Positions 460-10,420 of a DNA stretch of 32,000 nt are shown one piece after another. A model generated the notes under the pieces. The model ran no database searches. It was not told where the DNA came from and saw only the letters and a list, made by a program, of their open reading frames with translations. Numbering within the stretch: position 1 is the first letter of the stretch; the number at the start of each line of letters is the position of its first letter. Made by a program: the position numbers and the translations under genes. Origin of the DNA: Methanothermus fervidus DSM 2088. Lineage in GTDB: Archaea; Methanobacteriota; Methanobacteria; DSM-2088; Methanothermaceae. Where the stretch lies: positions 1,020,001 to 1,052,000 of the forward strand of contig CP002278.1 of the NCBI GenBank assembly GCA_000166095.1, in the 5' to 3' direction.

Positions 460-1620
460 TTATCTTTCCAATAAATTTTTAAGTATTTTTTCAAATTTGT
501 CAGTTATTTTTTCCCAATCTCTTTTCTCTACATACCTTCTAGCCTTAATTCCTTCTTTCTCAATATCTATCTTCCTTGCCAAATCAATTGTCTCCTCAGG
601 TTTATCCACATAAAATACGCCATTCCCTTTGTTAAATTCCATGACTATTCCAGGTAACCTGGTTGCTATCACAGGCTTTGCCATTGCCATATATTCATAT
701 ATTTTTATTGGGACTATATCTTGCATTATTTTATGTTTATGAGCTGGTAAAACACAAATATCAGCAGCAGCTAAAAATTTTGGTATCTCATCATATTTTT
801 TCCTACCAGTGAGAATAATTTTGTTGCATTTATTAGCTATTTTCAAAAGATCATCATAGATATCTCCATCACCAACAATCATTAACTTCATATTTACATC
901 TTTTTTACACAATTCTTCGGCTAACTCTTTTAAACCAGAAAATTCATAAAGATATCCCATAAAAAATAAAAGTAATTCATTATCTTTAATTCCATATTTC
1001 TTTCTTATCTCTCTACCATCTAAACTTAAATCAAATTTACTTAAGTCTATTCCTGCCCCCAATACTTTAGTTTTTTTAGGATTAGACCCTAAATCAATAG
1101 CAAATTGGGCTAAACGCTTGTTTATTGCTAAAACCAAATCTGACTCCTTAATAATTTTTTTCATCAATATTTTTCCAAAAAATTGTAAATAATTTTCAGG
1201 AATAAGCCTATATAAAACATCTATTAAGTAATAAACAAAAGGTATGTCATGTTTTTTAGCTTCATGAACTCCTAAAAAAGAATTTAAAATTCCAAAACCC
1301 AATATAACATCAGGATCAAATTCTTTAATTTGCCTTTTTATTTCCTTTTTGTGGAAATAAAGGATAGATATATAATCAAGAATTGGAATCTTTACAATGC
1401 TTGGCCTAATCACTGTAACATTAGCCTCAGGAATTACTTTATGTACATTCCTAAATATTTTCCTTTTTTCAAAAATTTTATATCCTTTCTTTCTATAATC
1501 TATTTCGTAATCAATTACTCTTATCTCATGACCTCTCACTGACAACCTATCAATTAGATGATGCTGTTGATGTGGGTTCCTAGTTATCCAATCTGACTCC
1601 TGTAATAGAAGTATTCTCAT
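460..1620 (-). CDS. Glycosyltransferase, GT4 family (GT-B fold)
   Basis: 386 aa. The C-terminal donor-binding region is AADICVLPAHKHKIMQDIVPIKIYEYMAMAKPVIATRLPG (E-x7-E type). GAGGTGA lies 4 nt upstream of ATG 1620 and includes the TGA of the upstream gene. Confidence 0.85.
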   Translation of the reverse strand: MRILLLQESDWITRNPHQQHHLIDRLSVRGHEIRVIDYEIDYRKKGYKIFEKRKIFRNVHKVIPEANVTVIRPSIVKIPILDYISILYFHKKEIKRQIKEFDPDVILGFGILNSFLGVHEAKKHDIPFVYYLIDVLYRLIPENYLQFFGKILMKKIIKESDLVLAINKRLAQFAIDLGSNPKKTKVLGAGIDLSKFDLSLDGREIRKKYGIKDNELLLFFMGYLYEFSGLKELAEELCKKDVNMKLMIVGDGDIYDDLLKIANKCNKIILTGRKKYDEIPKFLAAADICVLPAHKHKIMQDIVPIKIYEYMAMAKPVIATRLPGIVMEFNKGNGVFYVDKPEETIDLARKIDIEKEGIKARRYVEKRDWEKITDKFEKILKNLLER

Positions 1621-1628
1621 TTTTCACC

Positions 1629-2621
1629 TCAAAACTCTGCAGATCTCTTTATTTTATCCCAATTCTCAACAAACCATTTATATGTAATCTCAAGTCCTTC
1701 TCTAAATGAAACTTTTGGTTCATAATCTAGCAATTTCTTAGCTTTTTCAATTGATGACAATAATCTCGTTTTGACATCCCATTCTCTCCTTCCAACATAT
1801 ACAACGCCTGCTTCATTCCCTGTTAATTCATTGACAATTTTTGCTAATTCAATAACCTTATGTTCCTTCCCTGAACCCAGATTTATAGCTTCTCCAATTG
1901 CTTTTTTACGAACACCCATTTTTAATAATCCTCTGACTATATCACCAACAAAGGTCCAATCTCTTGTTTCATTTCCAGTGCCTGTTATTGGAAGTGGTTT
2001 TCCTTGCATTGCCCAATAGAAGAAATTAGGTATTACATTACGATATTTTCCTGGAACTTCTCCAGGGCCATAAGCATTGAAAAACCTTGCATTCACAATT
2101 GGCAAATCATATAGATTGTAGAAGTAATTACAATAAAGTTCACCAAGTAATTTAGTTACCTGGTATGGTGTATGTAGTGAAATAGAGACGTCATCTTCTT
2201 TAAATGGAATTTTAGAATCAAGGCCATAAACTCCACATCCAGATGATGCATAAACAAATCTTTCAACTCCAACAAGTTGTGCATACTCTAAAACTTTCAG
2301 TGTTCCCAATCCATTAACTAATAAATCGGTTTCAGGATGATCAACACTATTTTGGTTTGCAAAATGTGCTGCAAGATGGAAAACATAATCTGGTCTTTCT
2401 TTATACACTCTTTTTAATATCTCATCATCAAGTATATCTCCTTCAACAAATACTATGTTTTCATGTTTTGGGATATTCCATTTGTAGGAGGAAGATAAGT
2501 TGTCAAGTATTATTACATTTGCACCTAGCTCAGCTAATTTTCTAGATAAATTACTTCCTATACATCCTGCTCCACCGGTAACTAACACGGTCTTACCATC
2601 ATATTTCTTAAGTTCTGACAT
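1629..2621 (-). CDS. NAD-dependent nucleotide-sugar epimerase/dehydratase/decarboxylase (extended SDR)
   Basis: Rossmann motif VLVTGGAGCIGSNL, catalytic YQVTK (YxxxK), and ARFFNAYGPGE. The likely start is ATG 2621 (MSELKK), preceded by GGAGAGGA and overlapping the upstream TAA as TAATG. The ORF-track start at 2636 is the alternative. Confidence 0.85.
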   Translation of the reverse strand: MSELKKYDGKTVLVTGGAGCIGSNLSRKLAELGANVIILDNLSSSYKWNIPKHENIVFVEGDILDDEILKRVYKERPDYVFHLAAHFANQNSVDHPETDLLVNGLGTLKVLEYAQLVGVERFVYASSGCGVYGLDSKIPFKEDDVSISLHTPYQVTKLLGELYCNYFYNLYDLPIVNARFFNAYGPGEVPGKYRNVIPNFFYWAMQGKPLPITGTGNETRDWTFVGDIVRGLLKMGVRKKAIGEAINLGSGKEHKVIELAKIVNELTGNEAGVVYVGRREWDVKTRLLSSIEKAKKLLDYEPKVSFREGLEITYKWFVENWDKIKRSAEF

Positions 2622-3508
2622 TATGATCCTCTCCATCGTTCCTTCATCATTCTATTTATTGAATCAAGTATTATACCTGTAAAGATAAAAAATGTTCCAA
2701 ATAGTGCCATTATACCTGCCACAATTGTAGGACCTATATTTACACTCCTGCCAATTAAATAATCTCTAAGAAATATCAATCCAAGTATCATGCCAATAAC
2801 CATAACTACTAAACCAGGCAATGTGAAATAGTAAAGTGGACGTTCAAATTCCATGTCATGTAATATTTTAGCTAAAACTTTTAAACCATGACTTATTGGA
2901 TTCTCAGAAGGTTTGCCAACATCGTATCTTGATCCAATTTCAACTTCAACAATTTTTAATCCAGCTTTTGCAGCATCGACTAACATTTCACTTTCAATTC
3001 CGAATCCATCATCCTTAAATCTAAAATATGGCATGCATTTTTTTGAAAATGCCCTAAACCCACTTTGTGTGTCTGAAATTTTAATACCTGCAGTTATATT
3101 TGTTGTTACATCCAAAACTTTTTGGCCTATTCGCCTATATTTGGGAGTTCCTGGATCTCCTCTAAGATATCTACTTCCATTAACAAAATCTGCCTTACCT
3201 TCAATTATAGGAGTTATAAGTTTGGGAATTTCATCTGGATTATGTTGAAAATCCCCATCTAAAGTAACTATTATGTCAGCATTTTTGTTTTTAGCATATT
3301 CAAAACCTGTTTTTAAGGAGGCACCTTTGCCTTTATTTTTATGATGTCTAATAACTTTAGCTCCTGCTAATTCAGCTATATCGCCAGTTCTATCAGTACT
3401 ACCATCATCTACAACAATAACGTCATCTACATATTTTTTTGTTAATAAAACAACACTGCCAATAGATAATTCCTCATTAAATGCAGGAATCACAGCAACA
3501 ACTTTCAT
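2621..3508 (-). CDS. Membrane-anchored GT2 glycosyltransferase, polyprenyl-phosphate sugar synthase type (GtrB/ArnC/Dpm1-like)
   Basis: Motifs VAVIPAFNEE, VVDDGSTD and the DxD motif LDGDFQH, plus two C-terminal hydrophobic helices (LYYFTLPGLVVMVIGMILGLIFL and GPTIVAGIMALFGTFFIFTGIIL). The likely start is ATG 3508 (MKVVAV), in an ATGA overlap with the upstream stop. The track start is 3538. Confidence 0.85.
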   Translation of the reverse strand: MKVVAVIPAFNEELSIGSVVLLTKKYVDDVIVVDDGSTDRTGDIAELAGAKVIRHHKNKGKGASLKTGFEYAKNKNADIIVTLDGDFQHNPDEIPKLITPIIEGKADFVNGSRYLRGDPGTPKYRRIGQKVLDVTTNITAGIKISDTQSGFRAFSKKCMPYFRFKDDGFGIESEMLVDAAKAGLKIVEVEIGSRYDVGKPSENPISHGLKVLAKILHDMEFERPLYYFTLPGLVVMVIGMILGLIFLRDYLIGRSVNIGPTIVAGIMALFGTFFIFTGIILDSINRMMKERWRGS

Positions 3509-4446
3509 GATTCTATACCATAATATTCTTTCATCCATTCCACAGTTCTCTTAATACCTTCCTGTGGTGGAACTTTAGGATCATGACCTAAATCTCTTTC
3601 TGCCTTTGAACAATCAACAATTTTGACTCGTGTTGTATGCGGCTCAACTTCTTTGTATCTAACTATGGAATCATCTCTACCTACAGCCTCTAAAACCATA
3701 TCAGAATATTCTTTAATGTCATATAGCCATTCCCTTCTTCCACCAACATTATATACCTCGCCAGGTTTAAAATTATCAACTATGTTAGCAAATGTTCTAA
3801 CAGAATCTTCAACATAATCTATTATCCTTTTGTGTCCTTTATAGACAGTGTATGGTTTGTTATGTAATGCATGGTAAATAAATTTAGGTATAAATCCTCT
3901 ATATGGATGGTATTTTTCACCAGGCCCATAACAATTTACTGGCCTAACTCTAACAATTTCAGATCCATGCATTCTTTCTGCATTCATACACATTAGTTCT
4001 CCTGCCCACTTGCTTATTGCATAATCATTCATTTGATATGTATCTTTTATGGGGTTATTAACCATAACATCTTCATGCATTACTCCATCGTAATCTCCAT
4101 AAACTTCTGCTGATGAAAAGAATATCAATCTAAAACCATGTTTTACTTGTAGGTTGAGAATATGTTTAGTTCCTATCACATTAGTCTCCCATAAATTCTC
4201 ATAGTAATGTTCACCATTCCATCTTCCATATTCAGCAGCTAAGTGATATACATAATCAAATTTCCAACGTTCGAAAACTCTTTCTAGCTGTCTATAATTC
4301 CTAACATCAGCTCTTATGTAATTCTCCCTATCACTATGCATCAAATCTAGAGAAATTACCTCATGTCCTCTGCTTTCTAACTCCCTAACTAGGTGTTTTC
4401 CAATAAATCCTTCTCCACCAGTCACTAAAATTCTAAATGTTTCCAT
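3505..4446 (-). CDS. NAD-dependent nucleotide-sugar epimerase/dehydratase (extended SDR)
   Basis: 313 aa. Motifs ILVTGGEGFIGKHL, SSAEVYGD, catalytic YAISK, and RPVNCYGPGE. AGGGAGAT lies upstream of ATG 4446. Confidence 0.85.
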   Translation of the reverse strand: METFRILVTGGEGFIGKHLVRELESRGHEVISLDLMHSDRENYIRADVRNYRQLERVFERWKFDYVYHLAAEYGRWNGEHYYENLWETNVIGTKHILNLQVKHGFRLIFFSSAEVYGDYDGVMHEDVMVNNPIKDTYQMNDYAISKWAGELMCMNAERMHGSEIVRVRPVNCYGPGEKYHPYRGFIPKFIYHALHNKPYTVYKGHKRIIDYVEDSVRTFANIVDNFKPGEVYNVGGRREWLYDIKEYSDMVLEAVGRDDSIVRYKEVEPHTTRVKIVDCSKAERDLGHDPKVPPQEGIKRTVEWMKEYYGIES

Positions 4447-4448
4447 TT

Positions 4449-6002
4449 TTACATCTCCCTCTTATATATCACTACTTGTCCAATTTTTTTTATTGGATAG
4501 TATCCATGAAGTGGCACAGATTTACTTGTATCACTATGTATATAATAGTATGGAGGTGCTTTATTCATAAGTCGCCAGAACAATTCCTTATCACTTTCAC
4601 TATAAATACGTGTAAAAACGTATTTTTTTAGATACCAAGTAAATGCAGGACCTCTGTCAGATGCTATAATTTTGTATTTATAATCAGGATCATATTTTTT
4701 TAGCCATTCTGCAGCAAGCTTTTCAGATTGAACCCAGGGATCACTTTTGGGCATCTCTATTAAATATATACCTGTGTTAAATATTATCAATGTAAGCAAT
4801 ACTGTCGCTATATTTTTTATTTTCGTAACTTTAGAAAATTTATGTACTCCTAATGTAAATGCATAAGCCAATGCAGGAGTCATTGTAATGAAATAGCGAT
4901 CAACCTTAACAGGATGTAATGTATGTAGAATAAAGAATGATAGAAACCATGTTAAAAATATTAAATCTAAGGCCAATCTTTTATCTTTTAAATTCCTATA
5001 TAGAGATAAAATCATTCCAAACATTATAAATTCGGCTATATAAAATGGAAAATTAAAGTAAATTGATAATGCAAGCACTATTGCTAATATAGTAGGTAAT
5101 AGGTATTTTTTTGGATTTTTAAAGGTAAATGGTATTATTCCAATGATGATGAAGATTAGTATTAAATATGAGATTAAAGTTGGTTCACTGTTAGATGGCC
5201 AAAGCATATCCTCATAATTATGTATGACTTTAGCTGAGATATATTGTGGTATATATTTGAGGTAATAGAGAAAATCTAAATTATAGCCTGGATTTGTAGA
5301 TGAAACTGCACCACCAGTAGAATATTTAATGAAAGGAACTATATTTTTTTGTCCAAATTGTTTTAAAAATTCATAGAATTCATAATAAATAAATACTCCA
5401 ATGCCAATGCTCGCTACTATTTTCTTAATATCAATTCTTTCTTTATATATGTAGAAGGTAAGAATTAGTGGGAAGATTATCAATGCAGATGTATATCTTG
5501 TTAAAAAGGAGAGAACTGCAACAGGGAATACAAAGTATAGATATCTAGAATTCTTTTTAACACCCAGTAATGCAAAATATAAACTCCATAAAGCTAAAGA
5601 TATGGATGGAACATCTAATGCTCCACTAACAGCCCACATAATGATTAAAGTGAAAGTTGCGAAAGCCGTAGCACCTAAAAATGATTCTACTTCACTAAAC
5701 TTCAACTTCAATATTAAATATAGAGCAATCACACCTAAAACATAAAAGATTGCTGACACTATGAACAATGCAGTTTCAGACACATAGCCTAGTTTAAAAA
5801 TTAAAGAAGTTAGATAAGAGAGAAATGGAGGTAAATAAAGAGTATCACTTGCACCTATGCCTGCCATTTTTGCTGCATTGTTTAGATAAAAAAATATATC
5901 CCAATAGTAAACCCCAATCTTACTTTGTATTTGAACGAGTATTATGGCAAGTATTGAGGTAAAGATAAGTAAAGTGAGAAGATACTTATCTACACCTTTC
6001 AT
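4449..6002 (-). CDS. Polytopic membrane glycosyltransferase, GT-C fold (ArnT/PMT_2/GT39-like), paralogue 2
   Basis: 517 aa with about 12 hydrophobic segments. There is a conserved acidic YWD in the first loop (GVYYWDIFFYLNNA), LTRYT and VDRYFITM motifs, and a soluble C-terminal domain of about 100 aa. The start overlaps the upstream paralogue by 17 nt. Confidence 0.7.
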   Translation of the reverse strand: MKGVDKYLLTLLIFTSILAIILVQIQSKIGVYYWDIFFYLNNAAKMAGIGASDTLYLPPFLSYLTSLIFKLGYVSETALFIVSAIFYVLGVIALYLILKLKFSEVESFLGATAFATFTLIIMWAVSGALDVPSISLALWSLYFALLGVKKNSRYLYFVFPVAVLSFLTRYTSALIIFPLILTFYIYKERIDIKKIVASIGIGVFIYYEFYEFLKQFGQKNIVPFIKYSTGGAVSSTNPGYNLDFLYYLKYIPQYISAKVIHNYEDMLWPSNSEPTLISYLILIFIIIGIIPFTFKNPKKYLLPTILAIVLALSIYFNFPFYIAEFIMFGMILSLYRNLKDKRLALDLIFLTWFLSFFILHTLHPVKVDRYFITMTPALAYAFTLGVHKFSKVTKIKNIATVLLTLIIFNTGIYLIEMPKSDPWVQSEKLAAEWLKKYDPDYKYKIIASDRGPAFTWYLKKYVFTRIYSESDKELFWRLMNKAPPYYYIHSDTSKSVPLHGYYPIKKIGQVVIYKREM

Positions 6003-7536
6003 AGATTATGGCTCCTTTAAATTTTTTAATGATTTTAAAACCTTTTAATTCAAAACCTTTTTTTGTCCATATGAAATAAGTTGCATTTGAATTTATAAGC
6101 ATTTTAGATAAATCATCTATACTCTTAAAATCATCTGGATTCCCTCTTTTCACTTCATATTTAAGATACCAACTCATTCCAATCCAATGATCTGAAAATA
6201 TAATCTTCTGTCTATAATTTGGATCATAATTTTTTAACCATGTTGCTGCATTCTCCAAATTTGAATCTAATCTATATGGAGTTATAGTGAAATAGTAACT
6301 TAAGGAAGATATAACAACGCCCACAGCTAGAAAAATTACTAATGCATTGTATTTCGAGGTTGAAATTAAATTTTTTAATTCTGAAATTCCAAGCATCAGA
6401 ATGTATGTTAGTGGAATAACCATCGTTATAAAGTACCTATCAACTTTGAGACATATTAAGCTATGAGCAAACAAATAGGTTAAAAACCATGTGAATACCA
6501 TTAAATCTAGTTTTGGAATTTTAGATTTTGAATAAAGAAATAACATGCAAGGAATTAATAACAATTCAGGTATAAGGTAAATTAGTTGATATTTCAATGA
6601 TAAAATTGTTAAAAAAATTGTTGGGATAATTCCATAAATTGCCCTATGTCTTTTTAAATATAAAGAAATCCCCAAAATTGAAAGAAAAGCTAAAACATAA
6701 CTTATTGGGGATGTGTATCCCATACTTGGATTTAGATATGTACCTAAATACTCTTTTGAAGGAAAGCTACTTATGTATTGTAAAATATGTTTTAGATAGT
6801 AGAAACTATCTAGATTGAATCCTGGATATTCTGGATTAGGTGTGCCTGGAATTCCAATGCCTAAAAAGATGAAAGGATTACCTACTTTTAAATATAAAAA
6901 ATACATGAAGGAAATTAAAATAGGACTCCCAAATGCAGCTCCTATCATCAATTCTTTAATATTTTTAAATCTACTCACAATCAAATATGTTAAAATAGGA
7001 ATAACCAATAGTCCTGCTGTATATCTTGTTAAAAAAGCTAGAAGATAAAGAATTGGTGTAAAAAACAAAAATTTTTTGTTTTTTTCCATACCATAAACAA
7101 ATGTGAAAATTGTCCATACACTTAGCATGGCTCCAGGAACATCCAGTGTTCCAGCAACCATCCATGCAAGCACAACAGACATGCATGAAAGAATTAATGT
7201 TCCTGCAAAACTTTCAATAGTTGTAAATCTAAGTCTTAAAAATAAATATGTTCCTAAAACTCCTAATACATATATTATCCCACATATTACAAACAAAACA
7301 ACTTCAGATACTCCTACAACCTTAAATAACATCCCAGTTAAAAATGGGATTAAAGGAGGAAGATATTGTTTATATCCTGGACTAATTCCAGCAAACATTA
7401 AAGCATTCCAAAGATATATGTACGTATCCCAGTATACTACCCCAAGTTTTACCTGAAGATTTAAAAAATAAATCGTTATTAATGTTATAAAGAGTAATAA
7501 AACTGAAATCATTTTTTTATCTTTTTTTGGATGCAT
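5986..7536 (-). CDS. Polytopic membrane glycosyltransferase, GT-C fold (ArnT/PMT_2/GT39-like), paralogue 1. First gene of the operon.
   Basis: 516 aa, collinear with the 4449-6002 product (GVVYWDTYIYLWNA, LTRYTAGL, VDRYFITM, WLKNYDPNYRQKIIFSD). AGGAGGGA lies 5 nt upstream of ATG 7536. Confidence 0.7.
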   Translation of the reverse strand: MHPKKDKKMISVLLLFITLITIYFLNLQVKLGVVYWDTYIYLWNALMFAGISPGYKQYLPPLIPFLTGMLFKVVGVSEVVLFVICGIIYVLGVLGTYLFLRLRFTTIESFAGTLILSCMSVVLAWMVAGTLDVPGAMLSVWTIFTFVYGMEKNKKFLFFTPILYLLAFLTRYTAGLLVIPILTYLIVSRFKNIKELMIGAAFGSPILISFMYFLYLKVGNPFIFLGIGIPGTPNPEYPGFNLDSFYYLKHILQYISSFPSKEYLGTYLNPSMGYTSPISYVLAFLSILGISLYLKRHRAIYGIIPTIFLTILSLKYQLIYLIPELLLIPCMLFLYSKSKIPKLDLMVFTWFLTYLFAHSLICLKVDRYFITMVIPLTYILMLGISELKNLISTSKYNALVIFLAVGVVISSLSYYFTITPYRLDSNLENAATWLKNYDPNYRQKIIFSDHWIGMSWYLKYEVKRGNPDDFKSIDDLSKMLINSNATYFIWTKKGFELKGFKIIKKFKGAIIYERCR

Positions 7537-7679: not shown

Positions 7680-7933
7680 AGTTGATATTACTAAGTGATA
7701 TTAAAATTAAAAAACCAGTTTTAAGGGTTAAAGAATGAGAATAAACATTTTCCTATAAAAATATTTTTAGATATCTAATATTTTCCTATTATACTTAACA
7801 TTTTATCTTTATTTACGATGACGCCCTCAAAGATTAGAGATTATTAATTAGATATATTAAAAGATTTTAATCTCTTTTTATTTTATCTAAAACAATTTCT
7901 CCTTGCTTCTTATCCACGTTTTCTTTCGAAAAA

Positions 7934-7941
7934 TTTATATA
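7934..7941 (+). promoter_or_regulatory. Archaeal TATA box with an A-rich BRE-like flank, for the 8027 gene
   Basis: GAAAAATTTATATATTGG contains an exact TTTATATA at 7934-7941. The usual TATA-to-TSS spacing of about 25 nt predicts a transcription start near 7962-7968, about 60 nt before the start codon. Confidence 0.45.
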
Positions 7942-7968
7942 TTGGTTTAATGTGTATGCCTTATTGTG

Positions 7969-7993
7969 GTGGGGCATCCAAAGGGTGCCCCAC
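7969..7993 (+). promoter_or_regulatory. GC-rich stem-loop in the 5' leader of the secreted cell-wall protein gene
   Basis: GTGGGGCA (7969-7976) is perfectly complementary to TGCCCCAC (7986-7993). The stem can extend inward (U-G, C-G, C-G) to 11 bp around an AAA triloop. It lies immediately after the predicted TSS and 5 nt before the GGAGGGAG SD at 7999-8006. Confidence 0.5.
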
Positions 7994-8026
7994 AAGTAGG
8001 AGGGAGATAATATTCCGCCGTGTAAA

Positions 8027-10294
8027 TTGAAGTTAGTGGGATTAATTCTAGTGAGCTTAGTCATACTAAGTCTCAATGGAGTGAACGCCCAGGCAAATAC
8101 AACTTTACAAAACACAACAACATCATACAACTCCTCTATCAGTGTAAATGCAGTGTGGGTAAAAGCATGGGACATGGAAAAAATGAATTTCACATCGGTG
8201 AAACATAAAAACATAACAGATGTTTTCCTTGAGCAGCAGGCATTTGAAAAACCAAAATTCCAAAACTCCACAAAAGAATTCATAAACAAGGCCAAGAATG
8301 AAAATATAAGAGTCCATGCATGGATAATGTGCTTAAGGCAAAACAATACATGGATAGACCCAGTTAAGCACCCTGAAATCAAAGATGTGCTAGTTCAGAA
8401 GGCAACTAAGTATATAAAGGAATACAACGTTGATGGAATACACCTAGATTACATAAGATATCCAGGAAATGCACCAAAGAATGGTACAGATATAATAGCA
8501 GATATAGTTAAGTATGTATATGAATCAGTGAAGAAGATAAAGCCAAATGCATTAGTTTCAGCAGCAGTTATGCCAGAAATGTGGGCTAACTATATATATG
8601 GCCAAGATTACACAAATATGTCAAGATATCTAGACTTCATTGTTCCAATGGCTTACAAAGGTAACTACAATGAAACAACTGAGTGGATAGGGAAAGTAAC
8701 TAGATATGTTGTTGAGCATTCATTAAAGCCAGTTGTCACAGGAATACTTGCATATAGATCAGATAAAAATCCTGTTAAGTTGCCAGCAAGTGAACTAGTC
8801 CAAGATATCAGGGCTGCATTGGAGAATGGTGCCAGTGGATTTGCTATATTCCACTATGGAATAATAGATAAGAAATTTTTCATGGATAATCCAATTGATG
8901 TCAGTATAAATCAAATAAAGGATGCTGCAGCTAGAGTAACCAAATTTATTGATGTAAACAACAGACTACCTAGATATGTAAAAATTGGTAACCAGGAAAT
9001 ATCCATTGCACAGTACCTATATCTTGTAGCTACTGCACTTAAACAAGGACTTAAAGGAACTGTAACAGTGATTAACGTTGACAATCCTGATAATTCAACA
9101 GTAATGGCTTTAAAAGGTAATATCAAAAAGAACGAGTACCTATCCTTAGCAAAAAGAGTTTCAGACTTTATAGAGTCATATGAAAAAGCACCTAATTTTG
9201 CTACATTTAAAAACCAAAAAATTTCGTTTGAACAATTAGTCGCCTTATTCTCTAAAGCCATAGCTAACAACTTACCTAGTTATATAAGTCTAGAGAAATT
9301 AAATGGCATAAAGTCAGGATATTCAGCATTTAGCGCTGGCAATCCATTAAACTACACCCGTATAGACACCACCATTAACAATCCAATAATCACAGTCTCA
9401 GACATACTTGATGCAGCAGCTAGAGTTAAAAAATTCATAGATACAAACCAAAGATTACCAAAAACAATAAAATTGGCCAACCAACAAATAAAACCTGCAC
9501 AGTTCTTATATTTAGCATGCAAAGTTATTACTGGCGACACATCAGCATTGTCTATACCAAACATGGCTGAAGCCATAAATGGAGACTCATTAACAACAAT
9601 AACATTGCCAAAAGACAAGTATGTTGATGTAGCAAGTAAGGTCATTAAATTCATGGATACAAACGGAAAAGCTCCCAATTTTGCAACAGTAGATGGAACA
9701 AAAATATATTACAAAGACTTAGTTTACATGGCAGCAAAGATACTAAACTTTTACAAAGATAAAAACAGACTACCAAATTATGTAACAATAGATCCAGACA
9801 TTACATCAAGACCTGAAAATACACCATACAGAGGTGAAGATATATCACAATACCTTAGAGCAACAGCAAATTGTCAAGTCAATGACCCAAGAATACAAAG
9901 TCTAGCTAAAGAATTAACAGCAAATGCTGCAAATGACTGGGAAAAAGCATCAAATATATTCAATTGGGTAAGAGATAACATAGATTACAGTTTCTACTAC
10001 AACACAATGAAAGGCGCAGTAGGAACTTTATTAACAAGGAAAGCAAACTGTTGTGACCATGCACATCTCTGTGTAGCATTATTCAGGGCAGCAGGACTCC
10101 CAGCAAGATATGTACATGGATATTGCCAATTTGTATCAGGAAACTGGTATGGACATGTCTGGGCTGAAGTATTAATTAATGGAGTATGGTATGCGGCAGA
10201 TGCAACAGCATTTTGTAATAGTTTAGGCGTTGTGAAAAACTGGAACCCAACTACAGCTACAATATATGGAAGATACGCAAGCCTACCTTTCTAA
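8027..10294 (+). CDS. Secreted three-module pseudomurein-associated protein: glycoside-hydrolase-like TIM barrel, 4 pseudomurein-binding-type repeats, and a C-terminal transglutaminase/Pei-like cysteine protease domain
   Basis: 755 aa with a TTG start. Signal peptide MKLVGLILVSLVILSLNGVNAQA. N-terminal domain carries the motif DGIHLDYIRYP (GHL/DUF4015-type D-Y-I-R-[YF]-P). Repeats read IKDAAARVTKFIDVNNRLPRYV and ILDAAARVKKFIDTNQRLPKTI. The C-terminus has a Cys-His-Asp set (KANCCDHAHL, GHVWAEV, AADAT). The start is uncertain because the SD is 20 nt away; an in-frame ATT at 8012 is 5 nt after the SD. Confidence 0.85.
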   Translation: MKLVGLILVSLVILSLNGVNAQANTTLQNTTTSYNSSISVNAVWVKAWDMEKMNFTSVKHKNITDVFLEQQAFEKPKFQNSTKEFINKAKNENIRVHAWIMCLRQNNTWIDPVKHPEIKDVLVQKATKYIKEYNVDGIHLDYIRYPGNAPKNGTDIIADIVKYVYESVKKIKPNALVSAAVMPEMWANYIYGQDYTNMSRYLDFIVPMAYKGNYNETTEWIGKVTRYVVEHSLKPVVTGILAYRSDKNPVKLPASELVQDIRAALENGASGFAIFHYGIIDKKFFMDNPIDVSINQIKDAAARVTKFIDVNNRLPRYVKIGNQEISIAQYLYLVATALKQGLKGTVTVINVDNPDNSTVMALKGNIKKNEYLSLAKRVSDFIESYEKAPNFATFKNQKISFEQLVALFSKAIANNLPSYISLEKLNGIKSGYSAFSAGNPLNYTRIDTTINNPIITVSDILDAAARVKKFIDTNQRLPKTIKLANQQIKPAQFLYLACKVITGDTSALSIPNMAEAINGDSLTTITLPKDKYVDVASKVIKFMDTNGKAPNFATVDGTKIYYKDLVYMAAKILNFYKDKNRLPNYVTIDPDITSRPENTPYRGEDISQYLRATANCQVNDPRIQSLAKELTANAANDWEKASNIFNWVRDNIDYSFYYNTMKGAVGTLLTRKANCCDHAHLCVALFRAAGLPARYVHGYCQFVSGNWYGHVWAEVLINGVWYAADATAFCNSLGVVKNWNPTTATIYGRYASLPF
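8906..9785 (+). repeat. Intragenic protein-coding repeats: four pseudomurein-binding-type modules arranged A-B-A-B with a period of about 163 aa (about 489 nt)
   Basis: A1 is aligned on D299 (nt 8921) and A2 on D462 (nt 9410). B1 starts at EYLSLAKRVSDFIESYEKAPNFATF (nt 9134) and B2 at KYVDVASKVIKFMDTNGKAPNFATV (nt 9617). The nucleotide copies are clearly diverged. Confidence 0.75.
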
Positions 10295-10295
10295 A

Positions 10296-10324
10296 TTCTT
10301 TTTTAATTTATTTTTTTATTTTTT
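10296..10324 (+). terminator. Archaeal oligo-T termination region
   Basis: Directly after TAA 10292-10294 there are T6 (10299-10304), T7 (10311-10317) and T6 (10319-10324) runs. Multiple T-runs are the usual archaeal intrinsic termination signal. Confidence 0.5.
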
Positions 10325-10420
10325 ACAAAAATAAATTTAATTCTTCATAAATATATTTATAATGATTAATCATAATAAATTATATATACTTCTTTTGCAC
10401 TACAAGTTTTTGTGATTAAG

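Follow-up and report, generated by a model that had tools for sequence, protein, structure and literature searches.

Architecture of the protein encoded at 8027..10294

The window analysed here comprises 32,000 nucleotides of the chromosome of Methanothermus fervidus DSM 2088 (positions 1,020,001 to 1,052,000 of contig CP002278.1, assembly GCA_000166095.1). On its forward strand an open reading frame (ORF) at 8027..10294 encodes a protein in which a glycoside hydrolase (GH)-type barrel, pseudomurein-binding repeats (PMBRs) and a transglutaminase-core cysteine domain follow one another behind a signal-peptide-like N-terminus. By exact-sequence look-up the product is ADP77878.1 (WP_013414156.1, UniRef100_E3GWB3; Mfer_1084 by numbering), which carries the public names "transglutaminase domain protein" and "pseudomurein-binding repeat-containing protein". 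An earlier note, made from the letters alone, had described this ORF as a candidate pseudomurein-remodelling enzyme with these three parts; its coordinates proved exact, its motifs are present and the architecture is supported by Pfam, at scores well above chance, and by AlphaFold2. We propose that the protein is a secreted, PMBR-anchored enzyme with two heads, in which the barrel would cleave the pseudomurein glycan and the cysteine domain would act on the Lys cross-link, a reading that we hold with about even confidence on the sequence evidence presented below. The features are as follows, with residues of M. fervidus numbered from the TTG start and conservation in the barrel counted over 120 homologous barrels:

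8027..10294, forward strand: whole ORF, 755 amino acids plus stop, TTG start (ORF listing)
8027..8089, forward strand: signal-peptide-like N-terminus MKLVGLILVSLVILSLNGVNA, residues 1-21, then Q, assigned by inspection
8051..8053, forward strand: GTG start of the public annotation, 8 codons downstream of the TTG; gives the exact 747-residue sequence of ADP77878.1
8138..8881, forward strand: (beta/alpha)8 barrel, GHL10/DUF4015-like glycoside-hydrolase-type fold, residues ~38-285 (Pfam, AlphaFold2, Foldseek, profile alignment)
8432..8464, forward strand: beta4 motif DGIHLDYIRYP, residues 136-146; D141 and R144 both 120/120
8570..8578, forward strand: M182-P183-E184 just after beta5; E184 117/120, candidate catalytic acid
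8597..8608, forward strand: loop motif Y191-G192-Q193-D194; Y, G and Q each 120/120
8651..8668, forward strand: A209-Y210-K211-G212-N213-Y214 at the end of beta6; counterpart of GH18 MxYD, Lys211 standing in place of Asp
8762..8764, forward strand: D246 in the hairpin after beta7; 117/120
8903..9004, forward strand: PMBR repeat 1, residues 293-326 (Pfam, repeat analysis)
9125..9226, forward strand: PMBR repeat 2, residues 367-400 (Pfam, repeat analysis)
9392..9493, forward strand: PMBR repeat 3, residues 456-489; starts the second copy of a duplicated module
9608..9709, forward strand: PMBR repeat 4, residues 528-561 (Pfam, repeat analysis)
9707..9799, forward strand: PMBR repeat 5, residues 561-591 (Pfam best stretch 557-588)
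9824..10291, forward strand: transglutaminase-core (papain-like) domain, residues ~600-755 (Pfam, AlphaFold2, Foldseek)
10049..10051, forward strand: Cys675, predicted nucleophile, NC motif; 99/99 homologues
10154..10156, forward strand: His710, GH motif; 99/99 homologues
10199..10201, forward strand: Asp725; 98/99 homologues

The public gene model starts at the GTG and thereby truncates the hydrophobic N-terminus; read from the in-frame TTG at 8027, the n-region includes a Lys and the hydrophobic core is complete. The segment MKLVGLILVSLVILSLNGVNA is the sole Kyte-Doolittle window above 1.6 in the whole protein. From the TTG start the signal peptide looks canonical, and the protein is predicted to be secreted. 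A GGAGG-like stretch is located at ~7998-8005, about 20 nucleotides 5' of the TTG.

For decades no enzyme has been assigned to two steps of pseudomurein metabolism, one being the cutting or polymerising of the beta-1,3 glycan backbone, the other the cross-linking outside the cell (PMC3210951; PMC2812497; PMC10117817; PMC11915815). The protein family described here is a candidate for each of these two steps on one polypeptide. No enzyme cleaving pseudomurein glycosidic bonds is known (PMC3210951), as had been assumed beforehand, and our search of the newer literature found none. The weak aryl-beta-galactosidase activity reported in 2026 for a C39-like methanogen protein (PMC13642728) belongs to an unrelated fold, and we rejected that protein as a pseudomurein glycanase. 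The M. fervidus gene itself has a public annotation, public tables show which domains it encodes, and earlier authors have pointed to its orthogroup as a possible cross-linker; no paper found in our literature search mentions the gene by locus tag or accession. New with respect to the literature searched are the assignment of the barrel to the GHL10/DUF4015 type with a conserved site of its own, the parallel to Cwp19 and the occurrence of PMBR-barrel proteins in methanogen viruses.

The N-terminal barrel is a divergent GHL10/DUF4015-type domain

AlphaFold2 (61-sequence alignment) predicted residues 22-300 as eight beta-alpha units with a pLDDT of 91.3 and a pTM of 0.88. In Pfam the barrel exceeds the cut-off for Glyco_hydro_18 (PF00704; residues 73-214, 39.6 bits vs 29.6) and for DUF4015 (PF13200; residues 105-219, 31.5 bits vs 27) and stays just under it for GHL10 (PF02638; best stretch 106-146, 27.4 bits vs 27.9), a family that is present in the precomputed annotations of many homologues. 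None of the NCBIfam families matches the 755-residue protein. The top Foldseek matches in the PDB were 4wiw (a GH18-annotated Desulfitobacterium domain), Cwp19, the C-terminal domain of PgaB and GH18 chitinases, all at 10–17% identity (Cwp19 with a TM score of 0.65-0.69); ENGases, chitinases and chitinase-3-like lectins were also found among the fold and sequence matches. A profile built from 18 barrel domains matched 4wiw (3.5e-10), the DUF4015 structure 4s1a (8e-9), acidic mammalian chitinase (8e-6) and Cwp19 (8e-5).

Despite the Pfam score above cut-off the barrel can be ruled out as a GH18 chitinase. The HMMER alignment places DGIHLDY-IRYPG against DGLDLDW-EYPG of GH18, so that Arg144, with Ile143 inserted, takes the position of the catalytic Glu, and the counterpart of MxYD reads M208-A-Y210-K211. 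Because both catalytic features are replaced, the barrel is not a functional GH18 enzyme. With GH18 chitinases and chitinase-like lectins it shares the fold and the beta3-beta6 region, but it differs in the catalytic Glu, in MxYD and in the conserved polar set. The alignment with 4s1a runs motif for motif (FDEIQFDYIRFP, ...ILE..., ...IGQ..., ...PMVY...), with DYIR[FY]P, the Glu after beta5, GQ and PMxY in common, the match covering only part of the barrel.

In a genome-wide scan for the pattern G[IV][HN]LD[YS][IVL]RY[PS] we collected 524 relatives. Those from Methanobacteriaceae are 32-50% identical to the query and those from many bacterial phyla 22-32%. Among archaea this close clade turned up only in Methanobacteriaceae-type genomes and a few doubtful bins, and the bacterial GIHLDYIRYP proteins are GHL10 and/or DUF4015 by Pfam, with GHL10 scores of 41-189 bits. 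The barrel family comprises 357 clusters (50% identity) at E<=1e-30 and 5,167 at E<=1e-3. On these sequence comparisons we place the barrel within the GHL10/DUF4015 group, as a methanogen branch that has diverged from the rest. The expected TIM-barrel with a GH-like fold was thus recovered, while the GH18 function suggested by the domain annotation was not. Since DUF4015 has no characterised member, membership in it says nothing on function, and a literature search on DUF4015/PF13200 function returned nothing relevant.

The branch has a distinct set of conserved residues. Besides those listed above, K211 is found in 111/120 and N213 in 118/120 barrels, and W44, D65, H97, W99, Y142, Y145, D194, D203, M208, Y210, Y214, W220, Y243, S245, D260 and F275 are near-invariant. 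On the AlphaFold2 model beta4 ends with D141 and beta6 with Y210/K211, and E184 follows beta5 at a distance of three residues. To judge from these strand positions only, the conserved polar set (D141, E184, K211, D246) would lie on the catalytic C-terminal face. A GH-like fold is present together with candidate catalytic acids, D141, E184 and D246 being 98-100% conserved, so that the lack of such a fold or of such acids, named in the earlier note as refuting it, does not apply.

Within the GHL10/DUF4015 group Cwp19 of Clostridioides difficile is the one well-characterised member and a parallel in layout. It consists of a signal peptide, a GHL10 barrel of the (beta/alpha)8 type and wall-binding repeats that act non-covalently, and has been shown to be a peptidoglycan lytic transglycosylase and autolysin (PMC6016235; PMC5765458). 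The beta4 motif of the methanogen clade (idGihLDyiRYpg) has its counterpart in IDGVHFDDYFYPG of Cwp19. The two proteins differ in overall sequence (~14% identity), in the type of repeat (CWB2 vs PMBR), in the C-terminal cysteine domain, which Cwp19 does not have, and in E184, K211 and D246, which are specific to the methanogen clade. The substrate of Cwp19 is murein, compared with a presumed beta-1,3-linked pseudomurein glycan for the M. fervidus protein.

Pseudomurein-binding repeats and the cysteine domain

Behind the barrel Pfam detected five stretches of PMBR (PF09373; residues 293-591, E 2.4e-45), which immediately precede the transglutaminase-core domain. The region holds two tandem copies of a module of ~135 amino acids, the first made up of repeats 1 and 2 and a degenerate repeat, the second of repeats 3, 4 and 5. 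PMBRs are ~33-residue repeats with a conserved Pro; that at least 3 are needed for good binding is reported in PMC3124540. The Pei enzymes are targeted to pseudomurein by such repeats (PMC3210951).

The C-terminal domain (residues 586-755) was predicted confidently as papain-like (pLDDT 92.0). It matches Transglut_core (PF01841) over residues 625-726 with an E-value of 2.9e-27 (95.5 bits vs a cut-off of 23) and, marginally, Peptidase_C71 (PF12386) over residues 636-715 (23.7 bits vs 22). The motifs ANCCDHAHL (673-681), GHVWAEV (709-715) and DATAF (725-729) hold the Cys-His-Asp set, which had been called intact and is kept almost throughout the 99 homologues over which the triad was counted. 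In PeiP the residues aligned with Cys675 and His710 are those of the NC and GH motifs.

Foldseek placed the bacterial "putative cysteine protease" 3isr first (3.7e-11, 29% identity), followed by TglA of S. pyogenes, PeiP (3e-6, 20% identity), TgpA, PeiW (3e-5) and eukaryotic transglutaminases. By these comparisons generic transglutaminase-like proteins of bacteria are closer to the domain than Pei is. With PeiW and PeiP (MEROPS C71, from Methanothermobacter proviruses) the M. fervidus protein shares PMBRs N-terminal to a transglutaminase-fold Cys-His-Asp domain, but it is chromosomal, bears a predicted signal peptide, is more than twice as long, has the added barrel, shows ~20% identity and may be a transpeptidase. 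The common fold and PMBR targeting that had been postulated for the two are thus found. Since 3isr is closer (29% vs ~20% identity), the label "Pei-like cysteine protease" applies to superfamily fold and architecture only.

Virus-encoded proteins carry the barrel with PMBRs

Scanning IMG/VR with the barrel profile yielded 14 loci, of which 12 are 29-45% identical to the M. fervidus barrel. The viral barrel proteins consist either of a short PMBR segment and the barrel (~320-360 amino acids) or of the barrel followed by PMBRs (~585 amino acids), and never include a transglutaminase core. All core residues (D141, R144, MPE184, YGQ193, Y210-K211, N213, D246, R276) are kept in 11 of the 12 viral barrels. 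The genes for which coordinates matter here are:

L084 3708-4709; L085 7650-8723; L086 1820-2782; L087 200-1171: PMBR+barrel, ~330 amino acids, on contigs with terminase and portal genes
L088 7983-9728 (similar in L090, L091 and L094): barrel+PMBR, ~585 amino acids, on large IMG/VR contigs

L084 is a bona fide tailed-virus contig with the gene order terminase large subunit, portal, PMBR+barrel, head morphogenesis, head maturation protease and capsid protein. In L085-L087 related terminase and portal genes lie within a few kb of the barrel gene. The position inside the head module of L084 points to a wall-degrading protein that travels with the virion and is ejected, not to an endolysin. L088 has the barrel gene between a tail protein plus an ORF of 706 amino acids with no assigned function on one side and an integrase on the other, which is an endolysin-like position. 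Integrase genes are also located 1-3 kb downstream of the barrel gene in L089 and L091-L093 and at ~7 kb in L095. Positions in the head module or close to lysis genes support a role of the barrel in degrading wall glycan for entry or egress, and we regard the viral distribution as the strongest, though indirect, support for glycan cleavage by the barrel.

In PHROGs v4 no family corresponds to the barrel, and only the PMBR part matches the Pei PHROG. Searching viral structures in BFVD returned generic GH barrels only, at <=17% identity, and no named methanogen virus. The literature on methanogen viruses describes C71 and C39 peptidase lysins only.

Distribution in methanogens and the biosynthetic alternative

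The full-length homology search gave 204 matches, and the architecture was counted over 120 listed proteins. Barrel and transglutaminase core occur together in 97 of these. Proteins with all three parts are common in Methanobacterium; a genome has several such paralogues, 35-47% identical to the query. The fusion is not special to this genome but frequent in Methanobacteriaceae and visible in public annotation tables. Variants include proteins of barrel and PMBRs only (Methanothermobacter), Big-domain adhesin-like fusions and proteins with two to six barrel stretches. As the Methanothermobacter copies are without the transglutaminase domain, the two heads are not obligatorily coupled. In Methanobacterium sp. 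ACI-7 (L081 1704-10589) four related genes stand in tandem, encoding a DUF4015 barrel only (391 amino acids), barrel+PMBR+transglutaminase (735), transglutaminase only (336) and again barrel+PMBR+transglutaminase (862). From the sequences this array is a local expansion with domain shuffling.

Some further observations on the homologues can be added. In P0024-P0067 (~740-770 amino acids) an insert of ~60-80 residues is present in the barrel, between query residues ~93 and ~99 in N-domain numbering. Multiple barrel-matching stretches (two, three, up to six) were found in P0099, P0233, P0323 and P0325; of these P0099, from a metagenome-assembled genome labelled "Thermoplasmata", has two barrels, PMBR and a transglutaminase core. 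Close homologues binned as Bacillota, Paludibacter and Methanomicrobiales (L007, L014, P0066) suggest mis-binning or transfer.

M. fervidus has a genome of 1.24 Mb, the smallest of the group. A second M. fervidus protein was not found among the strong matches of the full-length search. Searching with the C-terminal domain returned short fragments of the same family only, without an M. fervidus paralogue or a Methanopyrus protein. According to the supplement of Lupo et al. 2025 members of orthogroup OG0000044 often carry a "(Trans)glycosidases" barrel, and M. fervidus has one member, WP_052293478.1 (PF01841, 4 PMBR, GH18/SSF51445). We infer that this is the locus at 8027-10294 (WP_013414156.1) with a different start, because the architecture is equal and the strong matches of the full-length search included no second M. 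fervidus protein. That its N-terminus was scored "OTHER" (no signal peptide) by these authors may be due to the truncating GTG start. The same supplement lists a separate secreted barrel-only protein of M. fervidus, WP_013414134.1 (GH18/SSF51445), and separate secreted transglutaminase-only and barrel-only proteins in Methanopyrus. Both modules thus seem to be present in every pseudomurein lineage and to be fused only in Methanobacteriales. By accession order the gene of WP_013414134.1 lies ~16 genes upstream of the window.

Pseudomurein methanogens are without homologues of PBP-type (penicillin-binding protein) transglycosylases or transpeptidases, and secreted transglutaminases have been proposed as cross-linkers (PMC2812497 Fig. 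S6; PMC10117817). Lupo et al. 2025 named OG0000044 the best candidate for this step; the barrel is not discussed in their main text. The protein might accordingly be biosynthetic, the transglutaminase core acting as extracellular transpeptidase on the stem peptides while the barrel holds the strand or transglycosylates, similar to a class A PBP. This we consider unlikely, although it is the main alternative. A single copy kept in so small a genome suggests an indispensable role, enzymes forming a thioester at Cys can resolve the intermediate with an amine, and R144 and K211 in place of the GH18 acids could bind a pyrophosphate leaving group. These points are opposed by the characterised relatives of both domains (Pei endoisopeptidases, Cwp19), which are degradative only, and by the viral proteins with barrel and PMBRs, which fit lysis or entry. 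Moreover, polymerisation of lipid-linked wall precursors is not known from any GH-type barrel, barrel and transglutaminase are separable and each is absent from some paralogues, OG0000044 has members in methanogens without pseudomurein, and WP_052293478.1 is tied to this locus by inference.

Taken to its full extent, the biosynthetic view would make the protein the missing extracellular pseudomurein synthase: the barrel would transglycosylate a lipid-linked precursor, with R144/K211 handling the pyrophosphate, the transglutaminase core would cross-link, and viruses would have captured the barrel and put it to degradative use. We regard this as a long shot. If true, the protein would be an archaeal, non-homologous counterpart of class A PBPs and essential in M. 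fervidus.

A proposed two-headed enzyme held on the sacculus

In the reading that we prefer, that of an enzyme cleaving the wall glycan with one head and acting on the peptide cross-link with the other, the secreted protein would be held on the pseudomurein sacculus by its PMBRs (five, possibly six). The GHL10/DUF4015-type barrel would bind the glycan strand and cleave a glycosidic bond, either hydrolytically or as lytic transglycosylases do, with D141 and E184 as putative catalytic acids and R144/K211 contacting an anionic group of the substrate. A 2-acetamido group is present on both sugars of pseudomurein, a free C6-OH on the hexosamine only; either chemistry is therefore conceivable. In the C-terminal domain Cys675, His710 and Asp725 would form a thioester with the stem peptide at the Lys isopeptide cross-link, and this would be resolved by water, as in a Pei-like endoisopeptidase, or by a Lys epsilon-amine, as in transpeptidation. 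Because one acyl-enzyme intermediate is common to both, the hydrolase and transpeptidase readings of this domain are compatible. The physiological role would be endogenous wall remodelling in growth and division. The architecture, the two folds, the conservation of both sets of residues and the occurrence in hosts and viruses are seen in the data; the substrate, the chemistry and the direction in which each reaction runs are proposed on that basis. The autolysin or remodelling role put forward in the earlier note is thus kept as one of two live readings, the other being the proposal in the literature that the orthogroup is a cross-linking transpeptidase. Glycan- and peptide-directed modules on one wall-targeted polypeptide are also known from Atl-type autolysins (amidase and glucosaminidase) and from class A PBPs; these share the logic but no homology with the M. 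fervidus protein, so that the comparison is one of analogy only.

Several observations weigh against glycan cleavage combined with peptide-directed action as the function of this protein. At five positions of the catalytic face (D105Q, Y150P, Y190I, Q241L, R276H) the M. fervidus copy does not have the consensus residue of the family, and basic residues stand in place of the catalytic Glu and the MxYD Asp of GH18, as in non-catalytic chitinase-like lectins. Residue D196, proposed as a key residue of Cwp19, corresponds to Tyr142 in the profile alignment, and the catalytic machinery is therefore not simply transferable from Cwp19. Enzymatic activity of the barrel clade and of DUF4015 is putative. 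Coupling of the two heads is dispensable in view of the Methanothermobacter copies that have no transglutaminase domain, and published proposals see the transglutaminase orthogroup in synthesis, as a cross-linker. The viral PMBR+barrel proteins could be directed at a different glycan of the cell surface, and some contigs, those with nothing more than an integrase, could be islands of host DNA.

The first two of these observations are also what would be expected of a lectin-like module without catalytic function that aids the recognition of the strand and leaves the cysteine domain as sole enzyme, and many chitinase-3-like lectins are among the sequence and fold matches. We nevertheless judge this reading quite improbable. 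The site is not decayed but occupied by a different, strictly conserved set (D141, R144, E184, Q193, K211, N213, D246) that is common to GHL10/DUF4015, and barrel-only or PMBR+barrel proteins with no partner enzyme domain exist in hosts and viruses, which would be odd for a binder that already has PMBRs.

For experiments the M. fervidus copy is attractive: it is thermostable and apparently the only member of the orthogroup in the genome, and D141, E184 and C675 are the targets for mutation. The viral PMBR+barrel proteins would be a simpler second reagent and the first glycosidase-type lysins of methanogens. Such lysins would complement PeiW, PeiP and PeiR in cell lysis, genetics and methane mitigation. 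If, in turn, the barrel is inactive or acts on another glycan, the protein would be an ordinary multidomain surface protein.

Gene neighbourhood and further sequence features

The following features were mapped around the gene:

460-1620, reverse strand: GT4, glycosylation operon
1629-2636, reverse strand: SDR epimerase, glycosylation operon
2621-3538, reverse strand: GT2, glycosylation operon
3505-4446, reverse strand: SDR epimerase, glycosylation operon
4449-6002 and 5986-7536, reverse strand: two tandem paralogous GT-C/PMT_2 (GT39-like) membrane proteins, glycosylation operon
7934..7941, forward strand: possible archaeal TATA box TTTATATA, ~90 nucleotides upstream of the TTG; weak, as the whole intergenic region is AT-rich
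10295..10325, forward strand: oligo-T-rich stretch directly 3' of the stop codon, looks like an archaeal terminator

The location on the M. fervidus DSM 2088 chromosome agrees with the chromosomal origin postulated before. The adjacent entries are ADP77877 (Mfer_1083) and ADP77880, and the surroundings comprise the divergent glycosylation operon, a radical-SAM gene and an MFS transporter, with no phage genes among these neighbours. A prophage origin was thus ruled out. The oligo-T stretch behind the stop codon suggests that the gene is a transcription unit of its own.

The six genes of the glycosylation operon (460-7536) are transcribed divergently from the gene at 8027-10294 and may have a role in the glycosylation of the S-layer or of a wall polymer. 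This arrangement would suit a barrel that acts on another glycan, such as S-layer N-glycans (in the manner of an ENGase), a secondary wall polysaccharide or an environmental chitin-like polymer, with the PMBRs serving as anchor only. ENGases and chitinases are among the Foldseek matches of the barrel, its bacterial GHL10/DUF4015 relatives occur in many contexts that have no link to the cell wall, and a GHL10 protein is reported to be active on starch (PMC9967864). The neighbourhood is, however, not conserved: synteny with the upstream operon was not found at the homologue loci of Methanobacterium or Methanothermobacter. Also the fusion of the barrel to PMBRs and a Pei-fold domain in most of the homologues counted, the PMBRs of the viral copies and the confinement of the close archaeal clade argue for a substrate in the wall, and we consider action on another glycan rather improbable.

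The protein has 12 N-x-S/T sequons, all within residues 24-442 and 7 of them in the first 110 residues. The series NTT-NTT-NSS directly follows the predicted cleavage site, and the transglutaminase-core domain is without sequons. As far as the sequence can tell, this pattern fits a glycosylated surface protein.

An antisense ORF of 171 amino acids with a TTG start (7867-8382, reverse strand) covers intergenic sequence together with the 5' part of the gene and is probably spurious. Between 8001 and 10000 of the window the GC content is 0.34-0.35 in the gene compared with ~0.30 in its neighbours, and the AT skew is strongly positive (0.22-0.25).

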